A DNA stretch of 37,621 nucleotides from an uncultured Desulfobacteraceae bacterium (GCA_964655655.1 CAZZPR010000020.1:1-37621); one strand, 5' to 3'; counted from the first letter of the stretch, positions 5,505-36,583 are shown. Notes: generated by a model from the sequence alone, not told the origin. Numbers and translations are program-made.

Positions 5505-6910
5505 TAAGAAAACCCCTTTGCGAGGGGCCCAAAGAGGCATGCGGGGTCTTTGGCGTCTTCGGCCTGGAAGATGCCTCAAAGTTGACCTATTTCGGCCTTT
5601 ACGCCCTTCAACACAGAGGACAGGAAAGTGCCGGTATAGTGAGCTCTGACGGGAGATCAATTCATGAGCACAGGGGCATGGGCCTTGTGCATGACATATT
5701 CAACGAGCAAATACTCTCCGGGCTCCACGGCCATATATCCGTCGGTCACGTGAGGTATTCCACAACCGGTTCTTCCATTTTGAAAAACGCCCAGCCCTTT
5801 ATAGTCTCACACGGTGGCGAGTTTTTTGCCATCGCCCACAACGGCAACCTCGTCAACGCCGGTGAAATAAGGCGCGATCTCGAGAGAAAGGGTTCTATAT
5901 TTCAGACCACCATGGACAGCGAGACCATTGTGCACCTGCTTATTCAAAACATAAAACAGGGAATGAAAGAGGCACTGGTAAGTGCGCTTTCAAGGGTAGA
6001 GGGGGCCTATTCCTGCGTTTTGATGACCAGAAAGGAACTCATCGCTTTTAGAGACCCCAACGGATTCAGGCCCCTTTGTATAGGACTGCTTGACGGGGGT
6101 TATATAGTAGCCTCAGAGACATGCGCCCTTGATCTGGTGGAGGCAGCCTTTCTCAGGGAAGTCAATCCGGGAGAGGTATTGATCATCAACGAACACGGGC
6201 TGCAATCATTCGGACCGGTTAAGAATAGCAGGAAAACCTTTTGCATATTCGAGTACATATACTTCTCCAGGCCTGACAGCAGCATTTTCGGACAGAATGT
6301 ATACAAAGTGAGAAAAAGGCTCGGAAAAAGAATGGCCCTGGAGTGTAAAGTCCGGGCCGATTTCGCAATGCCCCTGCCCGATTCCGGAAACTATGCGGCC
6401 GTGGGTTTCTGCCAGGAGTCCGGTATACCCCTGGAGATGGGGATTATTAGAAATCATTACGTGGGAAGAACATTTATCGAGCCTGCTCAAACCATGCGGG
6501 ATTTCGGGGTAAGGGTTAAACTGAACCCGGTAAAGGAGCTCCTGAACCGAAAAAGGGTAATAGTAATCGAGGATTCAATAATCCGGGGTACCACGAGCAA
6601 AATGAGAATCAAGGCCCTGAGAGATGCAGGGGCCCGGGAGATTCACATGGTGGTGAGCTGCCCGCCTCACAGATATCCATGCTACTACGGCATCGATTTC
6701 TCGGACCGGGGCGAACTTATTGCCTGCAACCACTCCGTTGAGGAAATAATGGATTTCATCGGCCTTGACAGCCTTTGCTATTTAAGCCTTTCTGGTATGC
6801 TCCAGGCCGTCGGACCTAATAAAAATAATTTCTGCCTAGCCTGTTTCAACGGTGATTATCCTATAGAGCCCAAAAAGGGTCTCTCCAAGCTTTACCTGGA
6901 ATCATGCTGA
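5501..6910 (+). CDS. purF: Amidophosphoribosyltransferase.
   Basis: N-terminal nucleophile motif 'CGVFGVFG', a PRTase motif ([14 protein letters not shown]) and C-terminal Fe-S cysteines. Its start overlaps the carB stop (GTGA). Confidence 0.9.
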
Positions 6911-13664: not shown

Positions 13665-15248
13665 TCAACGGTAGAGCCTATAGTCGACCCCGTATTTATT
13701 TGCCTTATATGTGAATTTGCGCTCACTTATATTCAGCATCTTTGCCGCCTTTGACATGTTTCCCTGGGTATTTTTCAGGGCATCGATAATCATCTCCTTC
13801 TCAAGGCTGGCAACGGCGTCCTCCAAAGAGAGAGCTGGTATAGTATCCGACTGTTTACCTGTCTGCAGGCTCGGCGGCAGGTGATAACTGTGTACCACAC
13901 CCTCCTCGCAGAGCAGCACAGCGCGCTCGATACAGTTCTCGAGTTCCCTCACATTGCCCGGCCAGTGGTATTGAACCAGCATGTCGATAGCAGGGGTTGA
14001 AAACCTTCTGATATCCTTTTGGTTCTCTCTGGCATATTTTTCCAGGAAATAGTCGGCCAGCAGCAGTATATCAGTTTTGCGTTCCCTGAGGGGAGGCAGA
14101 TATATGGGAAAGACATTCAGACGGTAATAGAGATCGCTTCTGAAAGTTTCCCCCTCCAGGGCCTGTTCGAGGTTTTTGCTGGTTGCCGCAACGATCCTGA
14201 TATCCGCCTTGAGGGTTTGATGTCCGCCTACCCGCTCGAACTCTTTTTCTTGAAGCACCCTTAGTAGCTTTACCTGAACCTCCATATCAACGGAGCCTAT
14301 TTCATCCAGGAAAATCGTACCTTTACTGGCGAGCTCGAATTTACCCGGTTTTTGACGAATGGCCCCGGTGAACGCACCCTTTTCATGGCCAAAAAGCTCG
14401 CTCTCGATAAGGTTTGCAGGCAGTGCGGCACAGTTTACCTTGACAAATGGCTTTTGTGCCCTGGGACTGTTATAATGAATGGCGCTCGCCACCAGTTCTT
14501 TTCCGGTACCGCTTTCGCCCCTTATCAAAACCGTGGCATTGCTCTTACAGACCTGGGAGATCATCTGGTAGACCTCCCGCATTTTGTTGCTGTTGCCTAT
14601 GATGTTGGTGATATGGTATTTTCTGGAAAGCTCATCCCTTAATCTTATGTTTTCCTGCCTCAGCTTCTCTTTTTCAAGGTGCAGGCTTTCCAGGTTTATA
14701 ACATGCTGTGCTATCATGGTTGCAATTATTGAAAGGAGCCTCTCCCCGTCTTTAAGGGAATAGGATTCATCATAGGGCCTGTCAACACTCAGGGTGCCTA
14801 CAACCTGTTCCCCTTTTTTTACAGGAACACAGATAAAGGAAAGCTCCTGATCGTGGATAGCCCTTCTTGTGGCGGTGCGATCGAGAAAAGAGGGTTCCTG
14901 GCTGATTTTAGGTACCACCAAGGCCTTTCCGGTCTGGATTACCCTTCCTGTGACGCCTTCTCCTATGGAGTATTTTCCCCTCTCCATGGCGGCCAGGGGC
15001 ATGCCGTGGGCCACCTCAATCCTGATTTCGTTTCTAAGGGGATTAAGGATAGTTACAGTTCCCCGCACCATCCCCATAGAGTTTGAAAGGATCTCCAGCA
15101 CCCTGTAAAGCGATTTCCTAAGGTCCAATGTCTCACTGAGGGCATTGGTTATCTCATAGAGAAGGGCGAGTTCCTCGGTCTTTCTTATAGAAACATTATC
15201 CATCATTGATGATTTTTCCATAGCAATGATTTTTATCAAATAAAGCAA
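13665..15248 (-). CDS. Sigma-54-dependent transcriptional activator with an N-terminal GAF domain (NifA/NtrC-like bEBP).
   Basis: Walker A 'GESGTGKE', a GAFTGA-type loop '[10 protein letters not shown]', an R-finger region and a C-terminal HTH ([15 protein letters not shown]). Confidence 0.85.
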
Positions 15249-15524: not shown

Positions 15525-17069
15525 CTATTCAACATTGTACATTATAATTTGACTTCTTCCGGAACTTTTTTGGATGGATAATACCAATTCCAGACCCTGG
15601 CCGTCTTGGGACTTCTTCAGGCAATAACCCGTTATCGGTCCGGGCATATCTTTGGTCTTCCACTTGGTGGCAATACTCAAACCGTCCCATTGGAGGAAAT
15701 GCATTCTACCGCTTGAAAACATCCTGTTTTTTTCAGTCATTCTATTAATAGAAGACTTGTTCTTGCATACAACCACTTCCTTAATACCGTTATTGTCCAG
15801 GTCGCTTAAAAGCATAGGGGGGGAAAAATGAAACCATTTCTCAGTACCTACATCTCTTCCCTGGGCAACCATGTGAATGTCAAGCCCTCCGAATTCATCC
15901 TCGCTCTTCCATATTCTGTCGCCGTCCTGGGTAACAAGAAACAGAAATTCCGTTTCCGGGCTTAATACCATGGTTTCTACAGAGCCTCCACCTGTCAAGC
16001 TTCCCTTGACAAAGTTGAACACATTTGCCATTGAGGGGAGCGTCAGGGGTTCCGCTTTTGTAAAATGGTTACCGTCCCTGTTCAATACGTATACGTGACC
16101 CGAAAATCCTCCCCCGGTAAGCCTTTTCTGGCCTATCAGGGTTTCACCTTTATCAGGTAGATTTACAACTCGAAAAAACCACCTCTGTCCCTTTGATATA
16201 ACTTTGAAATCCCCGGAACTCCATTCCAGAACAAAGGAGGACAGGGTGGACCCGGCAAGATTTGATACATATATCTCCTCCCTGCCGTTCTTATCCATGT
16301 CTCCTATAGAAACGTATACAAATTCGGGAGACCAGCTTCCCTGGATCTTTCTAAGCTCGGCAAAGGCCTTTTCCTGCCACTTGTATATATAAACAGTATC
16401 GCTATCAATACACACCAGTTCATCCTTGCCGTCTCCATCCACATCACCTGAATCCATGCCTATAATACCGGTCTTGAATGACTGAACGTGACCGATATCC
16501 TTTTTTTGCAGGCCCTCTGCTACTTTAATAAGCCCAGACCTTTTCTCTGTGCCCCCAGGCTTTTGTACGTAAACCGGTTCCCTGGTGGACCGCCCCAAAA
16601 TCTTGGCATTAATATCCTTTGCAAACTGGTTTATGGCGGGAATCACCTCGTCCATGCCCTTGGACTGGTTGAATGCAGTCACCAGTTTCTCTCCCTTGTC
16701 CACGTCCAGTATGCTGGCATCCATGCTGACACTTTCACCGAAAACGGTGAGGCTTCCTATAATCACATAATCCGCACCCAGGGATTTTCCTGCCTTTATA
16801 CCGGCGTCCTTGTCCAACCTGCCTTTAAGACGGGTTAGTTCTTCTTTCACGAGCCTCTCTTCGGCAACAACAACCTTGTCCTTCCATGCTAAACGGGATG
16901 AAAGCATGTCCACTATGCCTTCCTGCAAAAAAGAAAGGTCCCTGTCTGCGTTGATTTTGAAGGGCATTACAGCCACCTTTTTTATATTTTCCGAATATGC
17001 CGTATTTCCCAGGCAAACGATGATAAAACCCAGGGTAAATATTAAAACCCTAATACCCTTTTTTCCCAT
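15525..17069 (-). CDS. Secreted beta-propeller protein with FG-GAP/Ca-binding repeats and an N-terminal TolB-N/CsgG-like domain.
   Basis: Signal peptide 'MGKKGIRVLIFTLGFIIVCLGNTAYS'. Repeated 'DxDxDGxxE' motifs (DVDGDGKDELV, DMDKNGREEIYV, DLDNNGIKEVVV). RBS 'aagggggag'. Confidence 0.55.
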   Translation of the reverse strand: MGKKGIRVLIFTLGFIIVCLGNTAYSENIKKVAVMPFKINADRDLSFLQEGIVDMLSSRLAWKDKVVVAEERLVKEELTRLKGRLDKDAGIKAGKSLGADYVIIGSLTVFGESVSMDASILDVDKGEKLVTAFNQSKGMDEVIPAINQFAKDINAKILGRSTREPVYVQKPGGTEKRSGLIKVAEGLQKKDIGHVQSFKTGIIGMDSGDVDGDGKDELVCIDSDTVYIYKWQEKAFAELRKIQGSWSPEFVYVSIGDMDKNGREEIYVSNLAGSTLSSFVLEWSSGDFKVISKGQRWFFRVVNLPDKGETLIGQKRLTGGGFSGHVYVLNRDGNHFTKAEPLTLPSMANVFNFVKGSLTGGGSVETMVLSPETEFLFLVTQDGDRIWKSEDEFGGLDIHMVAQGRDVGTEKWFHFSPPMLLSDLDNNGIKEVVVCKNKSSINRMTEKNRMFSSGRMHFLQWDGLSIATKWKTKDMPGPITGYCLKKSQDGQGLELVLSIQKSSGRSQIIMYNVE

Positions 17070-17631: not shown

Positions 17632-20600
17632 ATGAAAAACAATATTACCGGATCAGTGATGGTGGTTGGCGGGGGAATTACAGGAATGCAGGCCTCTCTG
17701 GATCTTGCCGATTCGGGTTATTATGTTTACCTTGTTGAAGGCTCTTCCTCCATAGGCGGCGTTATGTCGCAGCTGGACAAGACCTTCCCCACTAATGACT
17801 GCGCAATGTGAATAATCTCCCCTAAACTGGTCGAGGTCGGCCGGCACATTAACATTGAATTGATGACCCTCTCAGAGGTGAAGGGCATAAAAGGGGAGGA
17901 GGGTAAATTTGAAGTAAATGTTATCCAACACCCCAGGTATGTGGATACAAACAAATGCATAGCCTGCGGTTTATGTGCGGAAAAATGTCCCAGAAAGGTG
18001 GATGACGAGTATAATCAGTCACTGAATAAAAGAAAGGCCATATATCTCCAATACCCCCAGGCCGTGCCCCTTAAATATGCCATCGACTCAGAAAACTGCA
18101 TCTTTTTTCAAAAGGGTAAATGCAGGGCCTGTGAAAAGTTCTGTCCAAGCGGGGCCATTGACTTCGAGCAAAAGGAAGAAAAACGTACCGTAAACGTAGG
18201 CTCTGTAATAATGTGCCCCGGGTTTGATATATTTGACCCGGCGGTACATGATACGTACGGTTACACCAAGGCACCCAACATCATAACCAGTATTGAATTC
18301 GAAAGGGTTCTCGCTTCCTCCGGACCTTACGGCGGTCACATGGTAAGGCCGTCGGACGGCAGGGAGCCGGAGAAGATTGCATGGCTTCAATGCGTGGGTT
18401 CAAGGGATGTGCACCAGGGTGCCAACTCTTATTGTTCTGCTGTTTGCTGTACCCATGCCATAAAAGAGGCCCTTGTTGCAAAAGATCACAAAAAGGGGGG
18501 TTTGGATACCGCTATATTCTTCATAGATATCAGGGCATCGGGCAAGGATTATGAAAGGTATTACAACCGGGCCAAGGACCAGCAGGGCGTAAGATTCATT
18601 AAATCCAAGATCACCCATGTAAAACATATCCAGGAAACAGGTAACCTGCTCATAAGGTACACCGATGAGCAGGGAAAAAGGGTAGAGGAAGAATTTGATA
18701 TGGTGGTGCTTTCCGTGGGCTTTTTCGTATCAAAAAGGCTGCGGGAATTCGCAGAAAAAATAGGCATAGAACTGGACCATCACAACTTTCCCGAGACAAA
18801 AAGTTTTGCCCCCGTGCAAACCAATAAACCGGGTATCTATATCTCGGGCTGCTTCCACTCTCCCAAGGACATACCTTCTGCTGTAACGGATGCAAGTGCT
18901 GCAGCGGCCAACGCAGGGGGCACCCTTTCGGTTTCCAGGTTTACATTGACCAAAAAAAAGGAATTGCCCCCGGAAATCCCAGCATTGGAAATAAAAGGTG
19001 AGAGGCCACGTATAGGGGTGTTCGTCTGCCAATGCGGAACCAACATTGCAGGTGTTGTGGATGTGCCGGAGGTAGCGAAGTACGCTGAGTCCCTTCCTTT
19101 TGTGGAATATACGGAGCAAAATCTTTTCAGCTGTTCCCAGGACACCCAGGAAACCATAGCCAAGGCCATAAAGGAAAACAAATTAAACAGGGTAGTGGTC
19201 GCATCCTGTACACCCAAGACACACGAGCCATTGTTCCAGGAAACAGCAAGAGAGGCCGGGATCAACAAATACCTATTTGAGATGGCCAACATAAGAAACC
19301 AGTGTTCCTGGGTGCATTCAGAATACCCTGAAGAGGCAACGCAAAAGGCCAAGGATTTGGTTGCAATGGCGATAAGGAAGTCCGCACTTCTTGAGCCGCT
19401 TCAGGAGGCAGAGCTTAACGTAACCCAGGCCGCCCTGGTTATAGGCGGGGGCATAGCAGGAATGAACGCGGCCAAAAACCTGGCCGAACAGGGATACAAG
19501 ACCTGTCTTGTGGAAAAAACCGGCAAGCTGGGAGGAAACGCCCTCAGGCTTTACCGGACCTGGAAAGGAGAAGATATACAGGAAAACCTAAAAGGCCTTA
19601 TTTCAAGCATAGAATCCCAGAAAAACATAGAGGTACTTCTTGACACAGAGATAAAGGAGGTGGAGGGATTTGTAGGCAATTTCATAACAACCCTTGTTAC
19701 CGGTGAGCAAGAAAAAAAGATAGAGCACGGTGTTGTAATTGTAGCCACCGGTGCAAAGGAATTGCTCCCCGAGGAATATCTGTACGGCACTGACTCCCGG
19801 GTGGTTACCTCCCTGGAGCTTGATGATATGTTTATAAATGGGGATAAAAGCCTGGAGGAAACAGGTACCTGCGTATTTCTTCAGTGCGTAGGTTCCCGAA
19901 TACCGGAAAGGCCCTACTGCTCCAGGGTATGCTGCACACATTCCGTGGTAAGCGCACTCAGGTTGAAGGAAGTAAAGCCGGATATGGACATATTTATCCT
20001 TTACCGGGATATGAGGACCTACGGGCTGAGGGAGGAAATCTACAGGGAGGCAAGGGATAAAGGCATAAAGTTCATTCGCTTTGACAATGAAGAGGATATG
20101 AATGTGGAAACCACGGAACAGGGGCTTTCAGTTGCCTTTATTGATTTTACCCTGAGAAGAAAGATGCGGATAAACCCGGATTTACTGGTCTTGGCTTCTG
20201 CCATTGTAAAAAGCGACGGAGAATCTCTGGCAAGACAATTCAAGATATCTTTAAACCAGGATGGCTTCTTCACTGAGGCCCATGTAAAGCTCAGGCCGGT
20301 GGATTTCGCCACGGACGGGGTGTTTTTGTGCGGCCTTGCCCACTCCCCCAAGCCAATTGACGAATCGGTAATCCAGGCACAGGCGGCGGCATCAAGGGCG
20401 GTTACTTTGCTGTCCCGGAAGACCATACACAGCAGCGGTAATGTGGCGGCAGTTGATCCAAGTTTCTGCAGCAGCTGCGGTGTGTGCATTGCCGTGTGCC
20501 CGTTCAGTGCCCCTGAATTCAACCAGGATACGGGCAAGGCGGAGATAAATCCGGTAATATGCAAGGGATGCGGGCTGTGTGTGGCCTCTTGCAGGTCCGG

Positions 20601-20655
20601 TGCCATCCACCTTAACGGGTTTGACGAGAATCAGATAATGTCCATGATAGCTTGA
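17632..20655 (+). CDS. hdrA: HdrA-like FAD/Fe-S flavoprotein (heterodisulfide reductase subunit A family), predicted selenoprotein with an in-frame TGA (Sec) at 17809-17811.
   Basis: The ORF track starts at 17860, but the same frame is open from ATG 17632. It encodes '[62 protein letters not shown]', which is the canonical HdrA N-terminus (…[13 protein letters not shown](I/L)…) with TGA where the second Cys sits. A SECIS-like hairpin 'ctggtcg-AGGT-cggccgg' lies at 17827-17844. Downstream are multiple Cx2Cx2Cx3CP ferredoxin motifs and a second FAD/NAD fold '[12 protein letters not shown]'. Confidence 0.8.
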
Positions 20656-20709
20656 TATGTTTACCGGAATTAGTTGCAATAAATTATGAAAAAATACAGG
20701 GAGAATAAG

Positions 20710-21141
20710 ATGAACGACTGGAGTCCGAGAATCACTGCCTTTCTTTGCAACTGGTGCAGTTATGCGGCGGCTGATCTGGCCGGAATAAACCGGATGCAAT
20801 ACCCCCCTAATATCAGGGCCATCAGGGTACCGTGCTCCGCAAGGGTGGATCCGAAGTTCATTCTGCATGCCTTGAGGAACGGCTCAGACGGAGTATGGGT
20901 TTCCGGGTGACACCCCGGGGAATGTCATTACCTGGAAGGTAATTATTATGCCAGAAGAAAGTTTGCGCTCTTAAAAAATTTCCTGGAGCATTTAGGGATG
21001 GGGCCTCAAAGGCTTACCTTTTCCTGGATTTCATCCTCGGAGGCCGGAAAATTCGCTGAGGTAGCCACGGAGGTAGTCGAAAAAGTAAAGGAGGTTGGCC
21101 CGATAGAAAGACTTGTAAAGAAAAGGGCCGAGGTAGCCTGA
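20710..21141 (+). CDS. mvhD: MvhD-like [2Fe-2S] electron-transfer protein (methyl-viologen-reducing hydrogenase delta subunit family), predicted selenoprotein with TGA (Sec) at 20908-20910.
   Basis: The tracked ORF ends at the TGA (…DGVWVSG*). Reading through gives '[22 protein letters not shown]…', which matches the MvhD 'VSGCHPGDCHY' motif. The N-terminus has 'FLCNWCSY' and 'VPCSARVD'. A hairpin 'attacc-tggaa-ggtaat' lies 17 nt after the TGA. RBS 'agggaga' precedes the ATG at 20710. The stop overlaps the next start (TGATG). Confidence 0.75.
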
Positions 21142-22091
21142 TGAAGGAATACACGGAAAAGATAAGAGAGGCGGCAAAAAAAATCTTGGAGGAAAACAAG
21201 GTTGATGTGGTCATCGGCTTCAAAAAGGGATCCGCTCCCTTTATGGTGGAGCCGGTTTTAATAAGGGACAGTGAACAGTCCGATCAACTTTACTGGAGCA
21301 GTTTCTGCTTTATCAACCTCGCCAATTATCTGCCAAAAAGAGAAGATAAAGTAGGAATAATGGCAAAGGGCTGCGATTCCAGGAATATTGCCCTTCACAT
21401 AATAGAAAACCAGATAAACAGGGAACAGCTTTATATAATAGGCATACCTTGCAGGGGAATGGTGGACAGAAGAAAGATAGTGTCCTCTCTAAAAGGCAAA
21501 GAGGTTACAGAGGTTGAGGAATCGGAAAAAGAAATTGTGGCCAAAGGGGAAGGCTTTGAGCAAACCTTTAACCGGGAAGATTACTTGCAGGAGAATTGCA
21601 AAACCTGTATGCACCGAAACCCCGTAATATATGACGAGCTTGTGGGGGAGCCGGTCAAGGAAAGGGAAGAACCGGACCCCTATGAGGATGTGAAGGATAT
21701 AGAAGAAAAGGAATCGGAAGGTAAGTGGGAGTTTTTCTCGGATCTTATCAAGGATTGCATCCGTTGCTACGCCTGCCGAAATGCTTGCCCCTTATGCTAT
21801 TGCCCCGTTTGCTTTGTGGAGGAATCCGACCCTCAGTGGGTGGGCAAGAGTATTGACCCGGTTGATACCATGACCTTTCACATCCTCAGGGCCTATCACT
21901 GTGCCGGCAGATGTACGGACTGCGGGGCATGTGAACAATCCTGCCCCATGGAAATCCCGGTCAGGCAATTTACAAGAAAATTAAACAAGGACGCCCTCGA
22001 GCTGTTCAATCACGAGGCCGGGCTGAGCACAGAAGAAAGGCCTCCCCTGGATACCTACAGGCCCGACGACTATGATGAATTTATGAGATAA
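21141..22091 (+). CDS. Di-[4Fe-4S] cluster protein, possibly an FrhB/FdhB-like electron-transfer subunit.
   Basis: Two motifs, 'CIRCYACRNACP' and 'CTDCGACEQSCP'. The N-terminal roughly 200 aa lack recognisable Cys motifs. Confidence 0.55.
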   Translation: MKEYTEKIREAAKKILEENKVDVVIGFKKGSAPFMVEPVLIRDSEQSDQLYWSSFCFINLANYLPKREDKVGIMAKGCDSRNIALHIIENQINREQLYIIGIPCRGMVDRRKIVSSLKGKEVTEVEESEKEIVAKGEGFEQTFNREDYLQENCKTCMHRNPVIYDELVGEPVKEREEPDPYEDVKDIEEKESEGKWEFFSDLIKDCIRCYACRNACPLCYCPVCFVEESDPQWVGKSIDPVDTMTFHILRAYHCAGRCTDCGACEQSCPMEIPVRQFTRKLNKDALELFNHEAGLSTEERPPLDTYRPDDYDEFMR

Positions 22092-22102
22092 TAAGGTGAT
22101 TA

Positions 22103-23140
22103 ATGGAAGATAAGATAATAAAAAAGGCAGAATTATCCAATTTCCTTGATTCCTTGAAAAAGAACTACGAGGTATTTGTTCCGGTAAAGGAAAAGGGCTT
22201 TTACGAGTTCAGGCCTTTTGCAGATCAACATGGCCTGGATCAGGATTTTACCAACACCCGGCTTTCACCGAAATCATTCCTGTTTCCCCAGTCCGAGAGG
22301 ATGCTTGAATTTGATCTGGATGAGCAAAAAGACGACGCCTATATACCCAAGGAGGTCCCAAAGGAATACCCGCCTGCTGTAATAGTTGGCATCAGGCCTT
22401 GCGACGCCAGGGCATTAAGGCTGATAGATGTAAACTTCAATAATCCGGAGTTCAAGGACCCCTGGTGGTTGAGGCATCTCCAGTCAATGGTTTTCGTGGG
22501 TCTGGGCTGCAATCAACCGGAAAGTACCTGTTTTTGCACTTCCGTAGGCGGCGGACCATTTAATGAGGAAGGTCTGGACATACTCCTTTTTGACCTGGAG
22601 GGAGATTATCTGGCCAGGCCCCTTACGGAAAAAGGCGATAACCTTTTAAAAGAAGCCGGGGTAAAGACCAAGGCGGACAAGGGCGCAAAAAGTAAGGCCC
22701 AAGAACTCAAGAAAGAGGCGGAAAACCGGATTAAAAGCCACGTGCCCACTGAAAAACTGAAAGAAAAAAACATGCTTGAGCTTTTCGATGCACCCTTCTG
22801 GGACGACGTTGCTTTTGCCTGCATCAACTGCGGTACCTGCACGTTCCTTTGCCCAACCTGCTGGTGTTTCGATATTCAGGATGAGGTTCAAAAAGATACG
22901 GGTGACAGGATAAGAAACTGGGACAGCTGCATGTTTCCCCTTTTTACCCTTCACGCCTCGGGCCATAATCCGAGATCGGAGAAGGTGCAGAGGGTAAGGC
23001 AAAGATTCATGCACAAATTAAAATATTATGTAGACAGATACCAAAACGGGGTTGCCTGCGTTGGATGCGGCAGATGCATTAAACACTGCCCGGTGAATAT
23101 TGATATTCGAGAAGTGTTCAAACTCATGAACGATCTTTAG
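22103..23140 (+). CDS. AsrA / sulfhydrogenase-beta-like Fe-S subunit.
   Basis: 345 aa with 'CINCGTCTFLCPTCWCF' and 'CVGCGRCIKHCPVN'. Size and Cys spacing are typical of anaerobic sulfite reductase subunit A and Pyrococcus HydB. Confidence 0.6.
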   Translation: MEDKIIKKAELSNFLDSLKKNYEVFVPVKEKGFYEFRPFADQHGLDQDFTNTRLSPKSFLFPQSERMLEFDLDEQKDDAYIPKEVPKEYPPAVIVGIRPCDARALRLIDVNFNNPEFKDPWWLRHLQSMVFVGLGCNQPESTCFCTSVGGGPFNEEGLDILLFDLEGDYLARPLTEKGDNLLKEAGVKTKADKGAKSKAQELKKEAENRIKSHVPTEKLKEKNMLELFDAPFWDDVAFACINCGTCTFLCPTCWCFDIQDEVQKDTGDRIRNWDSCMFPLFTLHASGHNPRSEKVQRVRQRFMHKLKYYVDRYQNGVACVGCGRCIKHCPVNIDIREVFKLMNDL

Positions 23141-25710: not shown

Positions 25711-26253
25711 TTGATAAACTCCAGGAAAACATCGGTTGCTTTAGGAATAACGTTTTTTATATTACTTTTTTTAAGTCTTATAAGCCTCCACGCAGGTGAG
25801 AAGGGGAAAGATCGGCTCCTTATCAAAATGGATAAATCCACCATACAGCCCGATGACGGGGACAGCTTTTTTTACAAAGATCTTGCCATTAGGGTCCTGG
25901 GAATAGATGCCCCGGAAATCGTACATGAGGAGCATGGCATATTCAAAGACCAAGCCTGCGGCAAAAAAGCGGCCGCTTTTACAAGGAAGACACTGACAGG
26001 GGCAAAAGTCCTGGAATACATGCCCTTTAAAAGGGATAAATATGACCGGCTCCTGGCTCACGTATTTGTGGACGGAGAACTGCTCTCCGTCCGACTTATC
26101 AGGGCAGGACTGGCATATGAAACGGTTTCCTACTATGGCGATAACGGATTTCCGGTGCTGGCCGAAAAGATAATCGAGGCTGCACGGGAAACCCCAAGAC
26201 CATCCTTTGAGCAGCCTTATATCTGGCGCCGAAGGCATCAGAGAAAAAAATGA
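25711..26253 (+). CDS. Secreted thermonuclease (SNase/micrococcal nuclease family).
   Basis: 'DGDSF…VRVLGIDAPE' Ca-binding/catalytic motif. Start re-called at TTG 25711 because RBS 'aggagg' lies 7 nt upstream. This gives the signal peptide 'MINSRKTSVALGITFFILLFLSLISLHA'. Confidence 0.7.
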   Translation: MINSRKTSVALGITFFILLFLSLISLHAGEKGKDRLLIKMDKSTIQPDDGDSFFYKDLAIRVLGIDAPEIVHEEHGIFKDQACGKKAAAFTRKTLTGAKVLEYMPFKRDKYDRLLAHVFVDGELLSVRLIRAGLAYETVSYYGDNGFPVLAEKIIEAARETPRPSFEQPYIWRRRHQRKK

Positions 26254-28910
26254 AAACCGAGACAAACACCCTGGAGGTAATAACTACCCATATAAATGCA
26301 GACTTTGATGCGGTGGCCTCCATGCTGGCAGCCAAAAAGCTTTATCCCGATGCCCTGATGGTTTTTCCAGGGGCCCAGGAAAAGAATTTGAGAAATTTCT
26401 TTTTGCAGTCCACCTCATATATATTTGATTTCGTCAGAATCAAAGATGTGGACTTAAAAAAAATCAAAAGGCTCATACTGGTCGATACCCGGCAAAAGAG
26501 GAGAATCGGTAAATTCAAGGAGATTATAGAAAGGGATGACCTGGAGATACATATATATGATCACCATCCGCCCTCAGACGATGATATACGGGGTGACTTC
26601 GAGATGGTAAAGGAACTTGGTGCCGGAACTTCCATACTAACGGATATAATAAGGCACAGGGGTATCCAAATCAATCCGGAGGAAGCAACCCTCATGTCCC
26701 TGGGGATATACGAGGATACGGGCTCCTTTACCTTCGCCTCCACAAAGGCGGAAGACCATGAGGCCGCCGCATGGCTTTTACAACAGGGCGCCTCAATTAA
26801 TACAATCTCAGATATGCTCACGAGGGACCTTACCGCCGAACAAATATGGCTTTTGAACGATCTCATGGATTCCGCCACCAAAAAAAACATAAACGGTGTG
26901 GAGGTGGTAATCGCCAAGGCCAGAGCCAGTAAATACATAGGTGATTTTGCCGTACTGGTGCAAAAATTCATGGAAATGGAGAATTTGAATGTAATATTTG
27001 CCCTTGCCCAGATGGAAAACAGGGTTTATCTGGTAGCAAGAAGCAGGCTCCCGGAGGTGAATGTGGCGGATATAGCCTTTGAATTCGGCGGAGGAGGCCA
27101 CCCCCAGGCCGCCTCCGCAACCATAACCGACAAGACCCTTATCCAGGTGGAGGAATACCTCAATGCACTGCTGCTGAGCAGGGTTAATTTCGAGCGGCTG
27201 GCCAAGGATATCATGACCTCTCCGGTTATACAAATAAAGCCCGGGGCTACCATAAAAGAGGCCAGCGAAACCTTAACCAGATATAACATAAATGCCCTGA
27301 TGGTTATAGACGAGCAGGATGTACTCAAGGGGCACATATCCAGGCAGGTGGCAGACAGGGCTATTTTCCTGGGACTGGAGACCAGGCCGGTAAGAGAATA
27401 TACGAATGTAGAATATTTTTCTGCACGCCCTGATACCAGTTTGAAAGAGATACAGGACCTGATCATAAACAACAAGATAAGGATACTTCCCGTGCTTCAA
27501 AATGGGCGGACAAAAGGGGTTATTACCAGGACAGATTTGCTGAATGTGCTGGTTGAAAGATCCTCTGCCCCAGAATTCCTGTATGATTCAGACGAATCAC
27601 CCAGGTTCGTTCGAAAGAAGAATATAAAAAACCTGCTTATAGAAAGGCTGCCCGAAAGGATAATAACCTTGTTGAACAGCCTGGGGGAAACAGCGGATCA
27701 CCTGAACTGGAATGCATATCTGGTCGGAGGGTTGGTAAGGGACGTTATCCTGAAAAGGGAAAACCTCGATGTAGACATAGTAATAGAAGGCAACGGTATA
27801 GAATTCGCCGGATCATTTGCCGACAAGTACGGAGCAGAAACAAAGACCTATCCCAAATTCGGGACGGCAATGGTTATTATGCACGACGGTTTCAAGGTAG
27901 ACATTGCCACTGCCAGGACTGAGCATTACGAGTCACCGGCTGCACCCCCGGTGGTGGAGCTGAGCTCTTTAAAGCTGGACATGTTCAGAAGGGACTTTAC
28001 AATAAATACGTTGGCGGTTCATCTTAATAAGAAGCACTTTGGAATCCTGATAGATCATTTCGGAGCCTTTAAGGACATCAAGGAAAAGGTCCTCAGGGTA
28101 ATCCACAGCCTGAGCCTGGTGGAAGATCCAACAAGGATCCTGAGGGCCATAAGGTTTGAGCAGAGGTTCGGGTTCAGGATAGGCAAGCTCACCCAAAGAC
28201 TGATCCAAAATGCATTAAACATCAATTGCTTTGAAAACCTTTCCGGCCAAAGGTTCTTTACGGAGCTTAAGCTCATCCTCAAGGAGCAGGAACCACTGGG
28301 TGCAATAGAAAAATTGAATGAATACGGAATATTGAAATTTATTTCCCCGGAGATGAGGCTTACAGAGGATGTCAGGGCTACCCTTAAAAATATAAAGGGG
28401 GTCCTGGCATGGTTTGATCTTCTTTATTTGGGCATTCCTTATGAACCGTGGAAGGTTTATTTTCTCGGTTTAACCTCGTCCTTAAATAAGGAGTCTCTGG
28501 GCGATTTGATGGAAAGGATGCAGGTTCAGGATAAAGAAATCATAAGATTGTCTTGGGAGCGAAACCGGGCGAAAAAGGCCCTGGGTAACCTCTCACGTAT
28601 GAAGGGCAAAAAGAACTATCCACTGCACACAATACTTACAGCTCTATCCACCGAGGTGTTGCTTTACACCGTGGCCAGGACCAAGAGCGAAAAGATAAAA
28701 AGAAACATATCCATATTTTTTACCAAGCTCAGGGGAACAGAGATATTTTTGAGAGGCAAGGATCTCGTAAAATTGGGTTTTAAGCCCGGCCCCCTTTTTA
28801 AGAAAATCCTGGACGCCACCTTAAAGGCCAAGCTGGAAGGCGATGTCAAAACAAAAGAAGAAGAGATAGAATTCATAAAGAAAAAATTCAGCGGTTCCCA
28901 CGGGGATTAG
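26250..28910 (+). CDS. Multidomain protein: DHH/DHHA1 phosphoesterase + tandem CBS + tRNA nucleotidyltransferase/poly(A) polymerase (CCA-adding) domains.
   Basis: The N-terminus 'ITTHINADFDAVAS…DHH' carries the DHH motif. CBS pair around 'IMTSPVIQI…LMVIDE' and 'ILPVLQNGRTKGVITRTDL'. Pol-beta NTase head 'LVGGLVRDVILKRENLDVDIVIEG…RRDFTIN'. Confidence 0.75.
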   Translation: MKTETNTLEVITTHINADFDAVASMLAAKKLYPDALMVFPGAQEKNLRNFFLQSTSYIFDFVRIKDVDLKKIKRLILVDTRQKRRIGKFKEIIERDDLEIHIYDHHPPSDDDIRGDFEMVKELGAGTSILTDIIRHRGIQINPEEATLMSLGIYEDTGSFTFASTKAEDHEAAAWLLQQGASINTISDMLTRDLTAEQIWLLNDLMDSATKKNINGVEVVIAKARASKYIGDFAVLVQKFMEMENLNVIFALAQMENRVYLVARSRLPEVNVADIAFEFGGGGHPQAASATITDKTLIQVEEYLNALLLSRVNFERLAKDIMTSPVIQIKPGATIKEASETLTRYNINALMVIDEQDVLKGHISRQVADRAIFLGLETRPVREYTNVEYFSARPDTSLKEIQDLIINNKIRILPVLQNGRTKGVITRTDLLNVLVERSSAPEFLYDSDESPRFVRKKNIKNLLIERLPERIITLLNSLGETADHLNWNAYLVGGLVRDVILKRENLDVDIVIEGNGIEFAGSFADKYGAETKTYPKFGTAMVIMHDGFKVDIATARTEHYESPAAPPVVELSSLKLDMFRRDFTINTLAVHLNKKHFGILIDHFGAFKDIKEKVLRVIHSLSLVEDPTRILRAIRFEQRFGFRIGKLTQRLIQNALNINCFENLSGQRFFTELKLILKEQEPLGAIEKLNEYGILKFISPEMRLTEDVRATLKNIKGVLAWFDLLYLGIPYEPWKVYFLGLTSSLNKESLGDLMERMQVQDKEIIRLSWERNRAKKALGNLSRMKGKKNYPLHTILTALSTEVLLYTVARTKSEKIKRNISIFFTKLRGTEIFLRGKDLVKLGFKPGPLFKKILDATLKAKLEGDVKTKEEEIEFIKKKFSGSHGD

Positions 28911-34057: not shown

Positions 34058-34274
34058 CGAGTCTCAAGTTAAACATATATTATTCAATCTAACAGACAAA
34101 CGCACATTATTCAACCACCACTTTAGGCGTTGGTAAAGGTCCTTAAAAAATAACGCATCAAGTATCCTGTTAATAAAAGAAAAAATGCCTCCATTTTTTA
34201 GTTTATTTGAGTTAGGAAGGTTTTTCCTGCTTTTTGGTTCTTCATAAGAAGCCCGACTATCAGCAGATACCCGG

Positions 34275-34686: not shown

Positions 34687-35754
34687 ATGGGTAAGGTATC
34701 CTTTTTTGCCCCGGGCAGGCTAATGATTGTGACCGGTTTACTTTTTGGTGCACTCGCTTCACTGCTAACCGAATGGGGCAATCCTGCCAATATGGGTATC
34801 TGTGTAGCCTGTTTCTATAGAGATATTGCCGGCGCAGTCGGGCTTCACCGGGCAGCTGTTGTCCAGTATATCCGACCTGAAATACTTGGATTTATATTTG
34901 GCGCATTCTTTTCTTCCCTTGGCTTCCGGGAATTTAGGGTAAGGGGCGGCTCCTCCCCTCTAGTCCGCTTTCTGTTGGGCACGTTCTTTATGATCGGCGC
35001 CCTGGTCTTTTTAGGATGCCCCATCCGTGCGCTTCTGAGGCTCGCCGGCGGAGACCTCAACGGTGTTACCGCTCTGGCGGGGGTTGTATTCGGGGCAATC
35101 ATCGGTATACAGTTCCTTAAAAACGGCTTTACACTGGGAAGATCATCAAGTATGCAGGCGTCGATAGGAGGACTTATGCCGTTAATATCCACCGGTTTCC
35201 TCCTGATGGTTATATTCAGGCCGGATTTCCTGTTTTTCAGTAAAAAGGGGCCCGGCTCCTTGCATGCCCCTATCTGGATCGCCCTGTTTACCGGTCTGTT
35301 GTTAGGCTTCCTGGCCCAGAGGACAAGGATGTGTTTTGTCGGGGGATGGAGGGACCTGATGCTGGTAAAGGATTCTTATCTCTTCAAGGGTGTTGCCTGT
35401 TTCTTTATAGGGGCAATAATTCTGAATGCAATACTCGGCGGCCATATCCACTGGGGTTTTACCGGGCAGCCAGTCGCCCATGATAATCATATATGGAACT
35501 TCCTGGGAATGACCCTTGCCGGACTGACCGCTACCCTTTTAGGTGGATGCCCCTTGCGTCAAACCATTTTAACGGGAGAAGGTGACTCAGATGCCGCCTT
35601 GACCGTGCTCGGCCTGGTTGCCGGTGCCGGCATTTCCCATAATTTCAACCTGGCCAGCAGCCCCAAGGGTGTGGGCGAATGGGGTCCGCTGGCGGTTATA
35701 ATAGGCCTTGCATTTTCCATTGCTATAGGGGTTTTAATGAGAGAAAAATCATAA
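34687..35754 (+). CDS. yedE: YedE/YeeE-family membrane protein (sulfur/selenium-compound transporter family).
   Basis: 355 aa polytopic protein with the two conserved Cys-containing re-entrant motifs 'GICVACF' and 'GCPIRALLR' in pseudo-repeat halves. Confidence 0.7.
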   Translation: MGKVSFFAPGRLMIVTGLLFGALASLLTEWGNPANMGICVACFYRDIAGAVGLHRAAVVQYIRPEILGFIFGAFFSSLGFREFRVRGGSSPLVRFLLGTFFMIGALVFLGCPIRALLRLAGGDLNGVTALAGVVFGAIIGIQFLKNGFTLGRSSSMQASIGGLMPLISTGFLLMVIFRPDFLFFSKKGPGSLHAPIWIALFTGLLLGFLAQRTRMCFVGGWRDLMLVKDSYLFKGVACFFIGAIILNAILGGHIHWGFTGQPVAHDNHIWNFLGMTLAGLTATLLGGCPLRQTILTGEGDSDAALTVLGLVAGAGISHNFNLASSPKGVGEWGPLAVIIGLAFSIAIGVLMREKS

Positions 35755-35765
35755 GGAGGCTTGAA

Positions 35766-35978
35766 ATGATAGAGGTCGATGCACGGGGTCTTTCCTGTCC
35801 TATCCCGGTGGTCAGGAGCAAGAAGGCTATCGATGAAAACCCCGGGGATAAGATACTGGTGATAGTAAACGAGGCAACCCAGAGGGATAATGTAACCCGA
35901 CTGGCAAAAAGCAGGGGCTACAACATAAAGGTAGAGGAAGTTCAAGATGAATACCGGCTTGAGCTGAAACCTGCATGA
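35766..35978 (+). CDS. yedF: TusA/SirA-fold sulfur (selenium) carrier protein, YedF-like.
   Basis: 70 aa, 'MIEVDARGLSCPIPVV' CPxP motif. RBS 'aaggagg' 6 nt upstream. The tracked ORF start at 35679 is an upstream extension. Confidence 0.7.
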   Translation: MIEVDARGLSCPIPVVRSKKAIDENPGDKILVIVNEATQRDNVTRLAKSRGYNIKVEEVQDEYRLELKPA

Positions 35979-36583
35979 ATTCGCTAATCACGGATAGCCG
36001 GAAAAGGGCTTCCTATATCAAAGGAGATATTAAACCTATGCTTTTTCTTAAAAGAAAAAAATCATACTCCGCCGATGGTCAAGGCCTGATTCTGTTTGAC
36101 CAAGTACCGGATGCGATGAAGGCAGAGAGATGCCTCAAGGAATCCGGTTACAAGGTCAAGCTGGTAGCGCCTCCCCCTGAAATACGTAAAGGTTGTGACC
36201 TTGCCGTACAGATAAATCTGGTGGAACAGCCCGGTATCGATAGGGTGCTAACCCAAAAGGGTGCTGACTTCATTGAAATAGTCCACGCGGGCGCAAATGG
36301 GGCTGAAATACTGGATATCGTAAAAGTAAAGGATTTCGGAAATGCTACCATGGTAAAGGCGGGAAATATGAAGCTGTCGTTTGACAATAAAACCGGAGTT
36401 GTTCTCAACACCTCGGGAGGAGGGTGCCCGGATATACCTTATCTTCATGCGGAAATGTTAAATAAAAAACTGACCGAGGCCCCAAGACCCAGGCAAATCG
36501 GCTTTACCCTCTGCGCCCTTATGCTGGATAGGGCCCTGGAAGAATGCCTGGAAATCTGGAAAGGGGGAAACCGAAAATGTTGA
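35975..36583 (+). CDS. DUF3343-like (putative Se/S carrier) N-terminal domain followed by an uncharacterised C-terminal domain.
   Basis: 'LILFDQVPDAMKAERCLKESGYKVKLVAPPPEIRKGCDLAVQI' fits the small DUF3343 fold, recalled from memory. The C-terminal 100 aa contain 'SGGGCPD'. The start is ambiguous between 35975 and 36038. Confidence 0.45.
   Translation: MNSLITDSRKRASYIKGDIKPMLFLKRKKSYSADGQGLILFDQVPDAMKAERCLKESGYKVKLVAPPPEIRKGCDLAVQINLVEQPGIDRVLTQKGADFIEIVHAGANGAEILDIVKVKDFGNATMVKAGNMKLSFDNKTGVVLNTSGGGCPDIPYLHAEMLNKKLTEAPRPRQIGFTLCALMLDRALEECLEIWKGGNRKC

Follow-up and report, generated by a model that had tools for sequence, protein, structure and literature searches.

Positions 20710–21141 of the DNA analysed here (a stretch of 37,621 nt from an uncultured Desulfobacteraceae bacterium, called the window throughout) form one gene for a 143-residue electron-transfer protein of the MvhD/FlxD type, in which codon 67, UGA, specifies selenocysteine (Sec); we put the probability of this reading at about 0.93. 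It stands on the identity of the gene, the placement of the UGA at a cysteine position, the conservation of both the UGA and a hairpin downstream of it, and the synteny of the operon, all of which are observed. The gene follows an hdrA-like gene with a Sec codon of its own, and Sec-mvhD beside Sec-hdrA is an already known pair in sulfate-reducing and syntrophic bacteria. The features discussed below are collected in Table 1.

Table 1. Features of the hdrA–mvhD operon, with positions counted from the first nucleotide of the window.
Feature	Position	Strand	Remarks
hdrA-like gene	17632–20655	+	1007 aa with read-through
hdrA UGA, assigned to Sec60	17809–17811	+	motif C-A-M-U
Putative hdrA SECIS hairpin, CUGGUCG-AGGU-CGGCCGG	17827–17844	+	recurs in related loci
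Shine–Dalgarno-like AGGGAG	20698–20703	+	6 nt 5' of ATG 20710
mvhD/flxD-like gene	20710–21141	+	143 aa with UGA 20908–20910 read as Sec67
In-frame mvhD UGA, assigned to Sec	20908–20910	+	first Cys position of G-C/U-H-x-G-D/E-C-H-Y
Putative bacterial SECIS hairpin within the mvhD CDS	20927–20943	+	stem AUUACC/GGUAAU, loop UGGAA
Fe-S protein, 316 aa, FlxC-like by position	21141–22091	+	two [4Fe-4S] motifs
HydB/ShyB/AsrA-like Fe-S subunit, 345 aa	22103–23140	+	Pfam Fer4_22, E = 1.2e-34
HydG/ShyC/AsrB-like FAD, NAD(P), [2Fe-2S] subunit, 281 aa	23179–24024	+	Pfam NAD_binding_1, FAD_binding_6, DHODB_Fe-S_bind

Reading frame and predicted product

Translation from the ATG at 20710 meets its first TGA at codon 67, directly after the residues DGVWVSG, and runs on in the same frame for 76 further codons until it closes at a TGA (21139–21141) that shares its A with the ATG of the following gene. 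The start codon is placed at 20710 rather than at 20686 because of the Shine–Dalgarno-like sequence 6 nt upstream; homologs open with MSDWEPK..., matching the MNDWSPR of the window in the alignment. An initial annotation of this DNA had described the frame, the TGA, the 76-codon continuation, the overlapping stop and the coordinates of the downstream stem, and all were found at the positions it claimed. Its estimates of 15.5 kDa for the read-through product and 8 kDa for the truncated form are corrected to computed masses of ~16.1 and ~7.4 kDa. A second assembly, a Logan contig from run SRR7048220, reproduces positions 20907–22257 of the window exactly, TGA and hairpin included.

The product belongs to the MvhD family

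For family searches, the TGA of mvhD was read as Cys. The read-through product covers the whole of the Pfam FlpD/MvhD profile (PF02662; profile positions 1–123 of 123, 185 bits against a cutoff of 22.3, E = 5.9e-55), and MvhD chains of known structure in the PDB align with it ungapped over residues 2–132 (7bkb_F, E = 1.9e-46; 5odc_D, E = 6e-45). In these chains, the TGA stands opposite the Cys of the G-C-H-x-G-D/E-C-H-Y motif. The MvhD/VhuD identity first proposed is upheld by this alignment, which runs across the TGA, and the frame downstream of the TGA is clearly that of MvhD. The five conserved Cys positions of the family (in CxxC, RxxC[ST], G-C-H and D/E-C-H-Y) correspond to C13, C16, C42, U67 and C72, which align with Cys of 5odc_D and 7bkb_F. 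Thousands of relatives turned up when 5.8 billion proteins were searched; the best 120 listed are ~143 residues long and 64–75% identical to the window protein. The genomic setting is also that of an mvhD gene: it adjoins hdrA, which ends at 20655, and hdrA is present at 106 of 120 Sec-type mvhD loci among the matches listed. From these data, we infer that the product is an MvhD/FlxD-like adaptor, for which [2Fe-2S] binding is predicted.

Conservation of the in-frame UGA

The best 120 of the thousands of homologs have Cys at the TGA position in 117 cases and a nominal 'W' in three. The DNA of these three carries TGA, and their proteins share the window's local stretch; they are Sec genes that were called under a code in which TGA is Trp. 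To cover genomes directly, one genome per bacterial or archaeal species was scanned with the pattern GGN-TGA-CAY-NNN-GGN-GAN-TGY-CAY-T, which returned at least 120 loci. Together with two other contigs, these make up the matches listed, of which 122 of 123 are mvhD with an in-frame TGA; in all 122, the sequence is recognisably MvhD and the frame unbroken both before and after the TGA. The remaining match (L065) arose by chance and is not mvhD.

Among the matches listed, the named hosts of Sec-type mvhD include Desulfosarcina, Desulfosudis, Desulfosediminicola and Desulforudis, and the many metagenome-assembled ones include members of Desulfobacterales, Syntrophobacterales, Smithellaceae, Syntrophomonadaceae, Pelotomaculum, Dehalococcoidales and Thermodesulfatator. 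Because the TGA-bearing gene recurs across such diverse hosts, a sequencing error or a lineage-specific pseudogene is ruled out as the source of the TGA. On this comparative evidence, the in-frame TGA of mvhD almost certainly encodes selenocysteine. The earlier designation of mvhD as a selenoprotein gene is thus sustained by the TGA at a Cys position, by its recurrence in at least 122 intact-frame mvhD genes and by the conservation of the hairpin described next.

A conserved hairpin follows the UGA

The arms of the stem occupy positions 20927–20932 and 20938–20943 and enclose the loop TGGAA (20933–20937), in which a U–A closure is possible that would leave a GGA triloop. The hairpin begins at the 17th nucleotide past the UGA; counted from the U of the UGA, the stem spans nt 20–25 and 31–36, and the loop begins 23 nt past the UGA. 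Zhang and Gladyshev, in their bSECISearch model of 2005, reportedly described the bacterial SECIS as carrying a conserved G in a small apical loop some 20 nt past the UGA, and the geometry of the mvhD hairpin fits this description. In archaea, SECIS elements are located in untranslated regions and work with a different elongation factor.

Among the matches listed, 96 of 121 unique Sec-type sequences read exactly AUUACC-N5-GGUAAU at positions 20–36. An RNAalifold alignment of 44 type A sequences yielded a consensus with the same stem and an optional seventh pair, which covaries (UA 25, AU 8, GC 1). In these 44 sequences, the six core pairs showed no compensatory covariation, as the type A stem never varies; the G at 20934 (position 27, second in the loop) is likewise invariant. 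The stem codons CAU, UAC, GGU and AAU are fixed throughout this alignment, whereas synonymous sites outside the stem are free to vary. Folded as single sequences, the mvhD hairpin had no extra stability over shuffled controls (z = +0.35 for 60 nt and −0.70 for 91 nt), and the z-scores for the region downstream of the hdrA UGA were not significant. Since folding of the lone sequence does no better than that of shuffled ones, the argument for the hairpin rests on comparison. A search for SECIS elements across the window with Rfam at the gathering threshold matched no curated SECIS family.

For this comparison, a control set of Cys-type mvhD genes was drawn from metagenomes with the same pattern, TGY replacing TGA; Cys-type paralogs were also sought as an internal control within the listed genome loci, and none was found there. 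The complete six-pair stem forms in 91 of 116 listed Sec-type sequences versus 3 of 111 Cys-type sequences. The codons within the stem follow the same division: GGT is used for Gly77 in 79% of Sec-type and 14% of Cys-type genes, AAT for Asn78 in 93% and 32%, and CAT for His73 in 78% and 36%, whereas TGC for Cys72, which lies outside the stem, is used in 72% and 73%. Local folding is also stabler in the Sec-type than in the Cys-type genes (Mann–Whitney p = 9e-8). With one set from genomes and the other from metagenomes, the two differ in sampling and phylogeny and do not make a strict test; the contrast is still informative because it is large and because the Cys72 codon serves as an internal control. 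As far as such sequence comparisons can tell, the hairpin is under RNA-level selection in TGA-bearing genes, and its identity in so many listed Sec-type sequences, set against its near absence from Cys-type ones, agrees with the original proposal that it is the SECIS of the mvhD UGA. Three Cys-type genes from metagenomes (L207, L232 and L132) retain a complete CAUUACC-N5-GGUAAU; these may be recent Sec-to-Cys conversions carrying a fossil SECIS, or may have arisen by chance.

A second SECIS design for the same UGA was seen in other loci. It is an 8-bp hairpin, UGCCACUA-UGN-UAGUGGCA, at positions 16–34 past the UGA, which uses the alternative synonymous codons CAC-UAU...GGC for the same His-Tyr-x-x-Gly residues in a shifted register. 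Its hosts (Syntrophomonadaceae, Desulforudis, Pelotomaculum and others; loci L012, L017, L021, L022, L038, L042, L043, L058, L064, L066, L068, L071 and others) belong mainly to Firmicutes-type lineages. Among the matches listed, CAU always occurs together with UAC (91 sequences) and CAC always with UAU (25). The presence of two unrelated hairpin designs for one UGA is a natural example of SECIS turnover within a constrained coding sequence. Further hairpin variants occur in the Smithella-like loci L013, L025 and L097, and in L029, L060, L106 and L122.

The upstream hdrA carries the first Sec codon

The product of the upstream hdrA-like gene contains two FAD/thioredoxin-reductase-like modules and ferredoxin domains. 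Its UGA is followed by a hairpin whose stem begins 16 nt past the UGA, as compared with 17 nt for mvhD, so that the geometry of the two matches. In hdrA genes adjoining a Sec-type mvhD, the last position of the motif K-T-F-P-T-x-D-C-x-x-U is a TGA codon in 67 cases and Cys in 12, and the hdrA hairpin recurs nearly unchanged in 67 related loci, both counts being among the matches listed. The view that mvhD is the second selenoprotein gene of its operon, after hdrA, is therefore strengthened by an hdrA UGA with a conserved hairpin of its own. Among all TGAs in the window that are flanked by long open frames, only those at 17809 and 20908 lie within real genes; a TGA at 34066 on the minus strand, upstream of a GGDEF gene, was rejected, as no domain-like sequence precedes it.

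Alternative explanations of the UGA

Gene callers treat the UGA as a true stop. The ORF list of the window ends mvhD at 20910, and gene calling on the Logan contig made a separate gene of a 47-aa C-terminal piece; TGA is, moreover, common as a stop in the window. On such a reading, the locus would be a split or decaying gene that yields an N-terminal fragment of 66 aa and, perhaps, a second fragment from the C-terminal part. We consider this very unlikely, given that the same TGA sits in an intact, conserved frame in at least 122 genes of diverse lineages, that the half downstream of it is still 65–76% identical to homologs at the amino acid level, and that neither half could contain all five conserved Cys positions. 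Past the TGA, there is no start codon or ribosome-binding site before Met97, and the RNA-level selection on the hairpin is specific to TGA-bearing genes. A conserved truncated product of 66 aa, the form that would favour a true stop, is not needed to explain any of these data. If the TGA were an error of sequencing or assembly, a single base change would turn it into TGC or TGT and restore the Cys that most database homologs have. Such an error is nonetheless so improbable as to be nearly negligible: the SRR7048220 assembly, possibly from the same sample, matches base for base, TGA included; the codons CAT, TAC, GGT and AAT, which go with the hairpin and are rare in genes with TGY, are present in the window; and the neighbouring hdrA has a matching Sec codon.

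The UGA might also be read through without Sec, either because TGA means Trp or Gly in this organism (code 4 or 25) or by near-cognate insertion of Cys or Trp when selenium is scarce. The three database homologs translated with W at this site would fit such a reading, and so would the lack of Sec machinery in the window: Pfam and NCBIfam scans of the remaining genes revealed no selA, selB or selD in the 37.6 kb, and Rfam (gathering threshold) and ARAGORN, applied to the same 37.6 kb, found no tRNA-Sec, returning tRNA-Val only. Set against this, TGA is the stop of 11 of the 27 confident genes of the window, including carB, glutamine synthetase and mvhD itself; there is therefore no code reassignment, and decoding at 20908 must depend on local context. 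The homologs among the best 120 have Cys and never an encoded Trp or Gly, and a SECIS-like hairpin is conserved. Occasional misincorporation of Cys under selenium limitation may occur, and would then be a side reaction of the same Sec system. Read-through without Sec is thus highly improbable, and selenocysteine at codon 67 remains our reading, for an organism that is presumably able to decode Sec. A putative selenium transporter of the YedE family is encoded at 34687–35754 (+), 13.5 kb downstream of the hdrA/mvhD selenoprotein genes (NCBIfam TIGR04112, 478 bits against a cutoff of 200), and is followed by a 202-aa ORF (35975–36583) with no family match.

Operon organization and proposed function

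Downstream of mvhD, the 316-aa Fe-S protein has a weak match to the FrhB/FdhB N-terminal domain, and 56 of 120 loci among the matches listed have its gene in synteny with Sec-type mvhD. The 345-aa subunit matches NCBIfam models of the sulfhydrogenase beta subunit and AsrA with E-values of 1e-45 to 7e-52, all below the equivalog cutoffs, and the 281-aa subunit matches PRK08345 (E = 6.6e-73), also below the cutoff; the latter is likely the entry point for NAD(P)H. At least 19 loci share the order of all five genes. Among the matches listed, the closest MvhD relatives are 76% (L082) and 73% (L044) identical. Neither hdrB (CCG-domain) nor hdrC was found in the operon or the window by the ORF list and the Pfam and NCBIfam scans.

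During translation of mvhD, AUUACC-UGGAA-GGUAAU would likely recruit SelB–GTP–Sec-tRNA(Sec) when the UGA occupies the A site of the ribosome, in a SelB-dependent decoding event, and the UGA at the end of the gene, having no such hairpin, would terminate translation. The finished protein likely serves as the adaptor in a soluble complex whose subunits all come from a single operon. Its partners would be the large Sec-containing HdrA and three subunits that resemble the beta/gamma module by which sulfhydrogenase, AsrAB or Flx oxidises NAD(P)H. Within this complex, MvhD would shuttle electrons one at a time between this module and the bifurcating FAD of HdrA, with partners and a direction of flow that we infer. 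By analogy with methanogen MvhD/VhuD and with BamF, MvhD is most likely the [2Fe-2S] adaptor that links the NAD(P)H module to the HdrA flavin.

Relation to known systems

In the FlxABCD-HdrABC system of Desulfovibrio vulgaris, which Ramos et al. are said to have described in 2015, an MvhD-like FlxD, Fe-S subunits and an FAD/NAD(P)-binding subunit are reportedly encoded with hdrA, the FAD/NAD(P)-binding subunit reportedly being related to the sulfhydrogenase gamma subunit. The window resembles this system in that its downstream genes match the HydB/AsrA and HydG/AsrB families, a likeness at the family level only. It differs in its gene order (hdrA-mvhD-FeS-FeS-flavoprotein), in lacking hdrB and hdrC and in the large, two-module HdrA, and so falls outside FlxABCD-HdrABC itself.

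MvhD/VhuD (PF02662) is listed among the experimentally verified selenoprotein families in a 2026 review of prokaryotic selenoproteomes, in which frhA-frhD-hdrA is a typical selenoprotein operon of archaea and Deltaproteobacteria (PMC13188914). The genome of D. autotrophicum HRM2 (2009) encodes Sec-containing mvhD1, 2, 3 and 5, each of which follows hdrA/hdrL, several of these also with Sec (PMC2702500), and hdrA and mvhD are among the five genes with UGA and SECIS reported for D. multivorans in 2016 (PMC5109826). Desulfobacterium autotrophicum HRM2 and Desulfococcus multivorans (mvhD dmul_C28840/50) thus share with the window the protein family, a SECIS within the CDS and an mvhD placed right after a Sec-containing hdrA/hdrL; by these published descriptions, through which the likeness is drawn, their mvhD differs from that of the window in sequence divergence only. 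Desulfosudis oleivorans (L005) and other species have the same five-gene operon with both UGAs.

Archaeal VhuD (Methanococcus, Methanocaldococcus), whose Sec content has been verified by experiment, is likewise a PF02662 protein, a [2Fe-2S] adaptor to HdrA encoded beside a Sec-containing hdrA (PMC13188914, PMC13518236). It has two Sec residues, one of them in CxxU (PMC13188914), whereas the window protein has CNWC at that site and a single Sec at residue 67. Against the NCBIfam VhuD model (NF045873), the window protein scores 132.5 bits, below the cutoff of 215, which places it outside VhuD. Among the matches listed, 113 of 115 bacterial Sec-type mvhD genes examined have Cys at the N-terminal site, and two have UGA at both sites. 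The loci L026 (a second copy, match at 6154–6178) and L112 contain two in-frame UGAs, in C-T-W-U and G-U-H, as in archaeal VhuD.

BamF, from the class II benzoyl-CoA reductase of Geobacter metallireducens, is a further Sec-containing, MvhD-homologous [2Fe-2S] adaptor, and joins an NADH-oxidising module to the fused double-HdrA subunit BamE (bioRxiv 10.64898/2026.04.10.717634). The 1007-aa HdrA of the window has two flavin modules, as does BamE. BamF is >100 aa longer than the 143-aa window protein and has extra domains, and its Sec (Sec19) occupies the N-terminal site rather than the position of Sec67. Genes for BamB, C, D, G, H and I are absent from the window, where the neighbours are HydB/HydG-like, and the window protein is therefore not a BamF.

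The role of residue 67

Both Sec residues had been taken at first for cluster ligands. For HdrA, this is contradicted by published cryo-EM structures, in which the CxxC/U pair forms a disulfide or selenenylsulfide between the FAD and a [4Fe-4S] cluster and is not a ligand (PMC13518236; bioRxiv 10.64898/2026.04.10.717634). In MvhD, too, one Cys near the cluster forms a disulfide; the position is that of Sec19 in BamF, at the N-terminal site, and is equivalent to residue 16, a non-ligand Cys with a disulfide near the cluster (bioRxiv 10.64898/2026.04.10.717634). We tentatively raise the idea, which we regard as rather doubtful, that residue 67 is not a passive [2Fe-2S] ligand but pairs with Cys16 next to the cluster as a redox-active selenenylsulfide switch (Cys16/Sec67). 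Such a switch would turn the transfer of one electron into that of two on the way to the HdrA flavin, as in ferredoxin:thioredoxin reductase. It is hinted at because residues 16 and 67 are the only MvhD positions ever found as Sec: residue 16 in BamF (Sec19), in the archaeal CxxU and in L026 and L112, and residue 67 here and in more than 120 genomes.

Significance for annotation

Standard gene callers split both mvhD and hdrA at the UGA, so that metagenome catalogues contain the two proteins in shortened form or lack them; this problem of annotation was also pointed out in a survey of HdrA from 2025 (PMC12054007). When both UGAs are read as Sec, the operon is complete, with five genes for HdrA, MvhD and an NAD(P)H oxidoreductase in an uncultured organism of the sulfate-reducer/syntroph group, and the pair of Sec-mvhD and Sec-hdrA would mark the host as selenium-dependent. 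The window brings nothing new on selenoproteins or electron bifurcation as such, and adds one further sequence with which to consider the role of Sec in MvhD.

Other genes of the window

Upstream of the hdrA operon and divergent from it lie genes for a GAF-domain sigma-54 activator and an FG-GAP-repeat protein, at 13665–15248 (−) and 15525–17069 (−). Because of this nearby activator, a sigma-54 promoter was sought in the 560-nt intergenic region 5' of hdrA, where nothing was found within four mismatches of the consensus. The remaining upstream genes form a cluster for nitrogen assimilation, with carAB, a glutamine amidotransferase, an asparagine synthetase A-like gene, glutamine synthetase and an ammonium transporter. 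Downstream of the operon, an 886-aa protein encoded at 26250–28910 (+) matches the model of the A-adding tRNA nucleotidyltransferase nearly end to end (987 bits, cutoff 1440), and its N-terminal half also matches models of the NrnA-type (DHH-family) phosphoesterase and of the CBS type.
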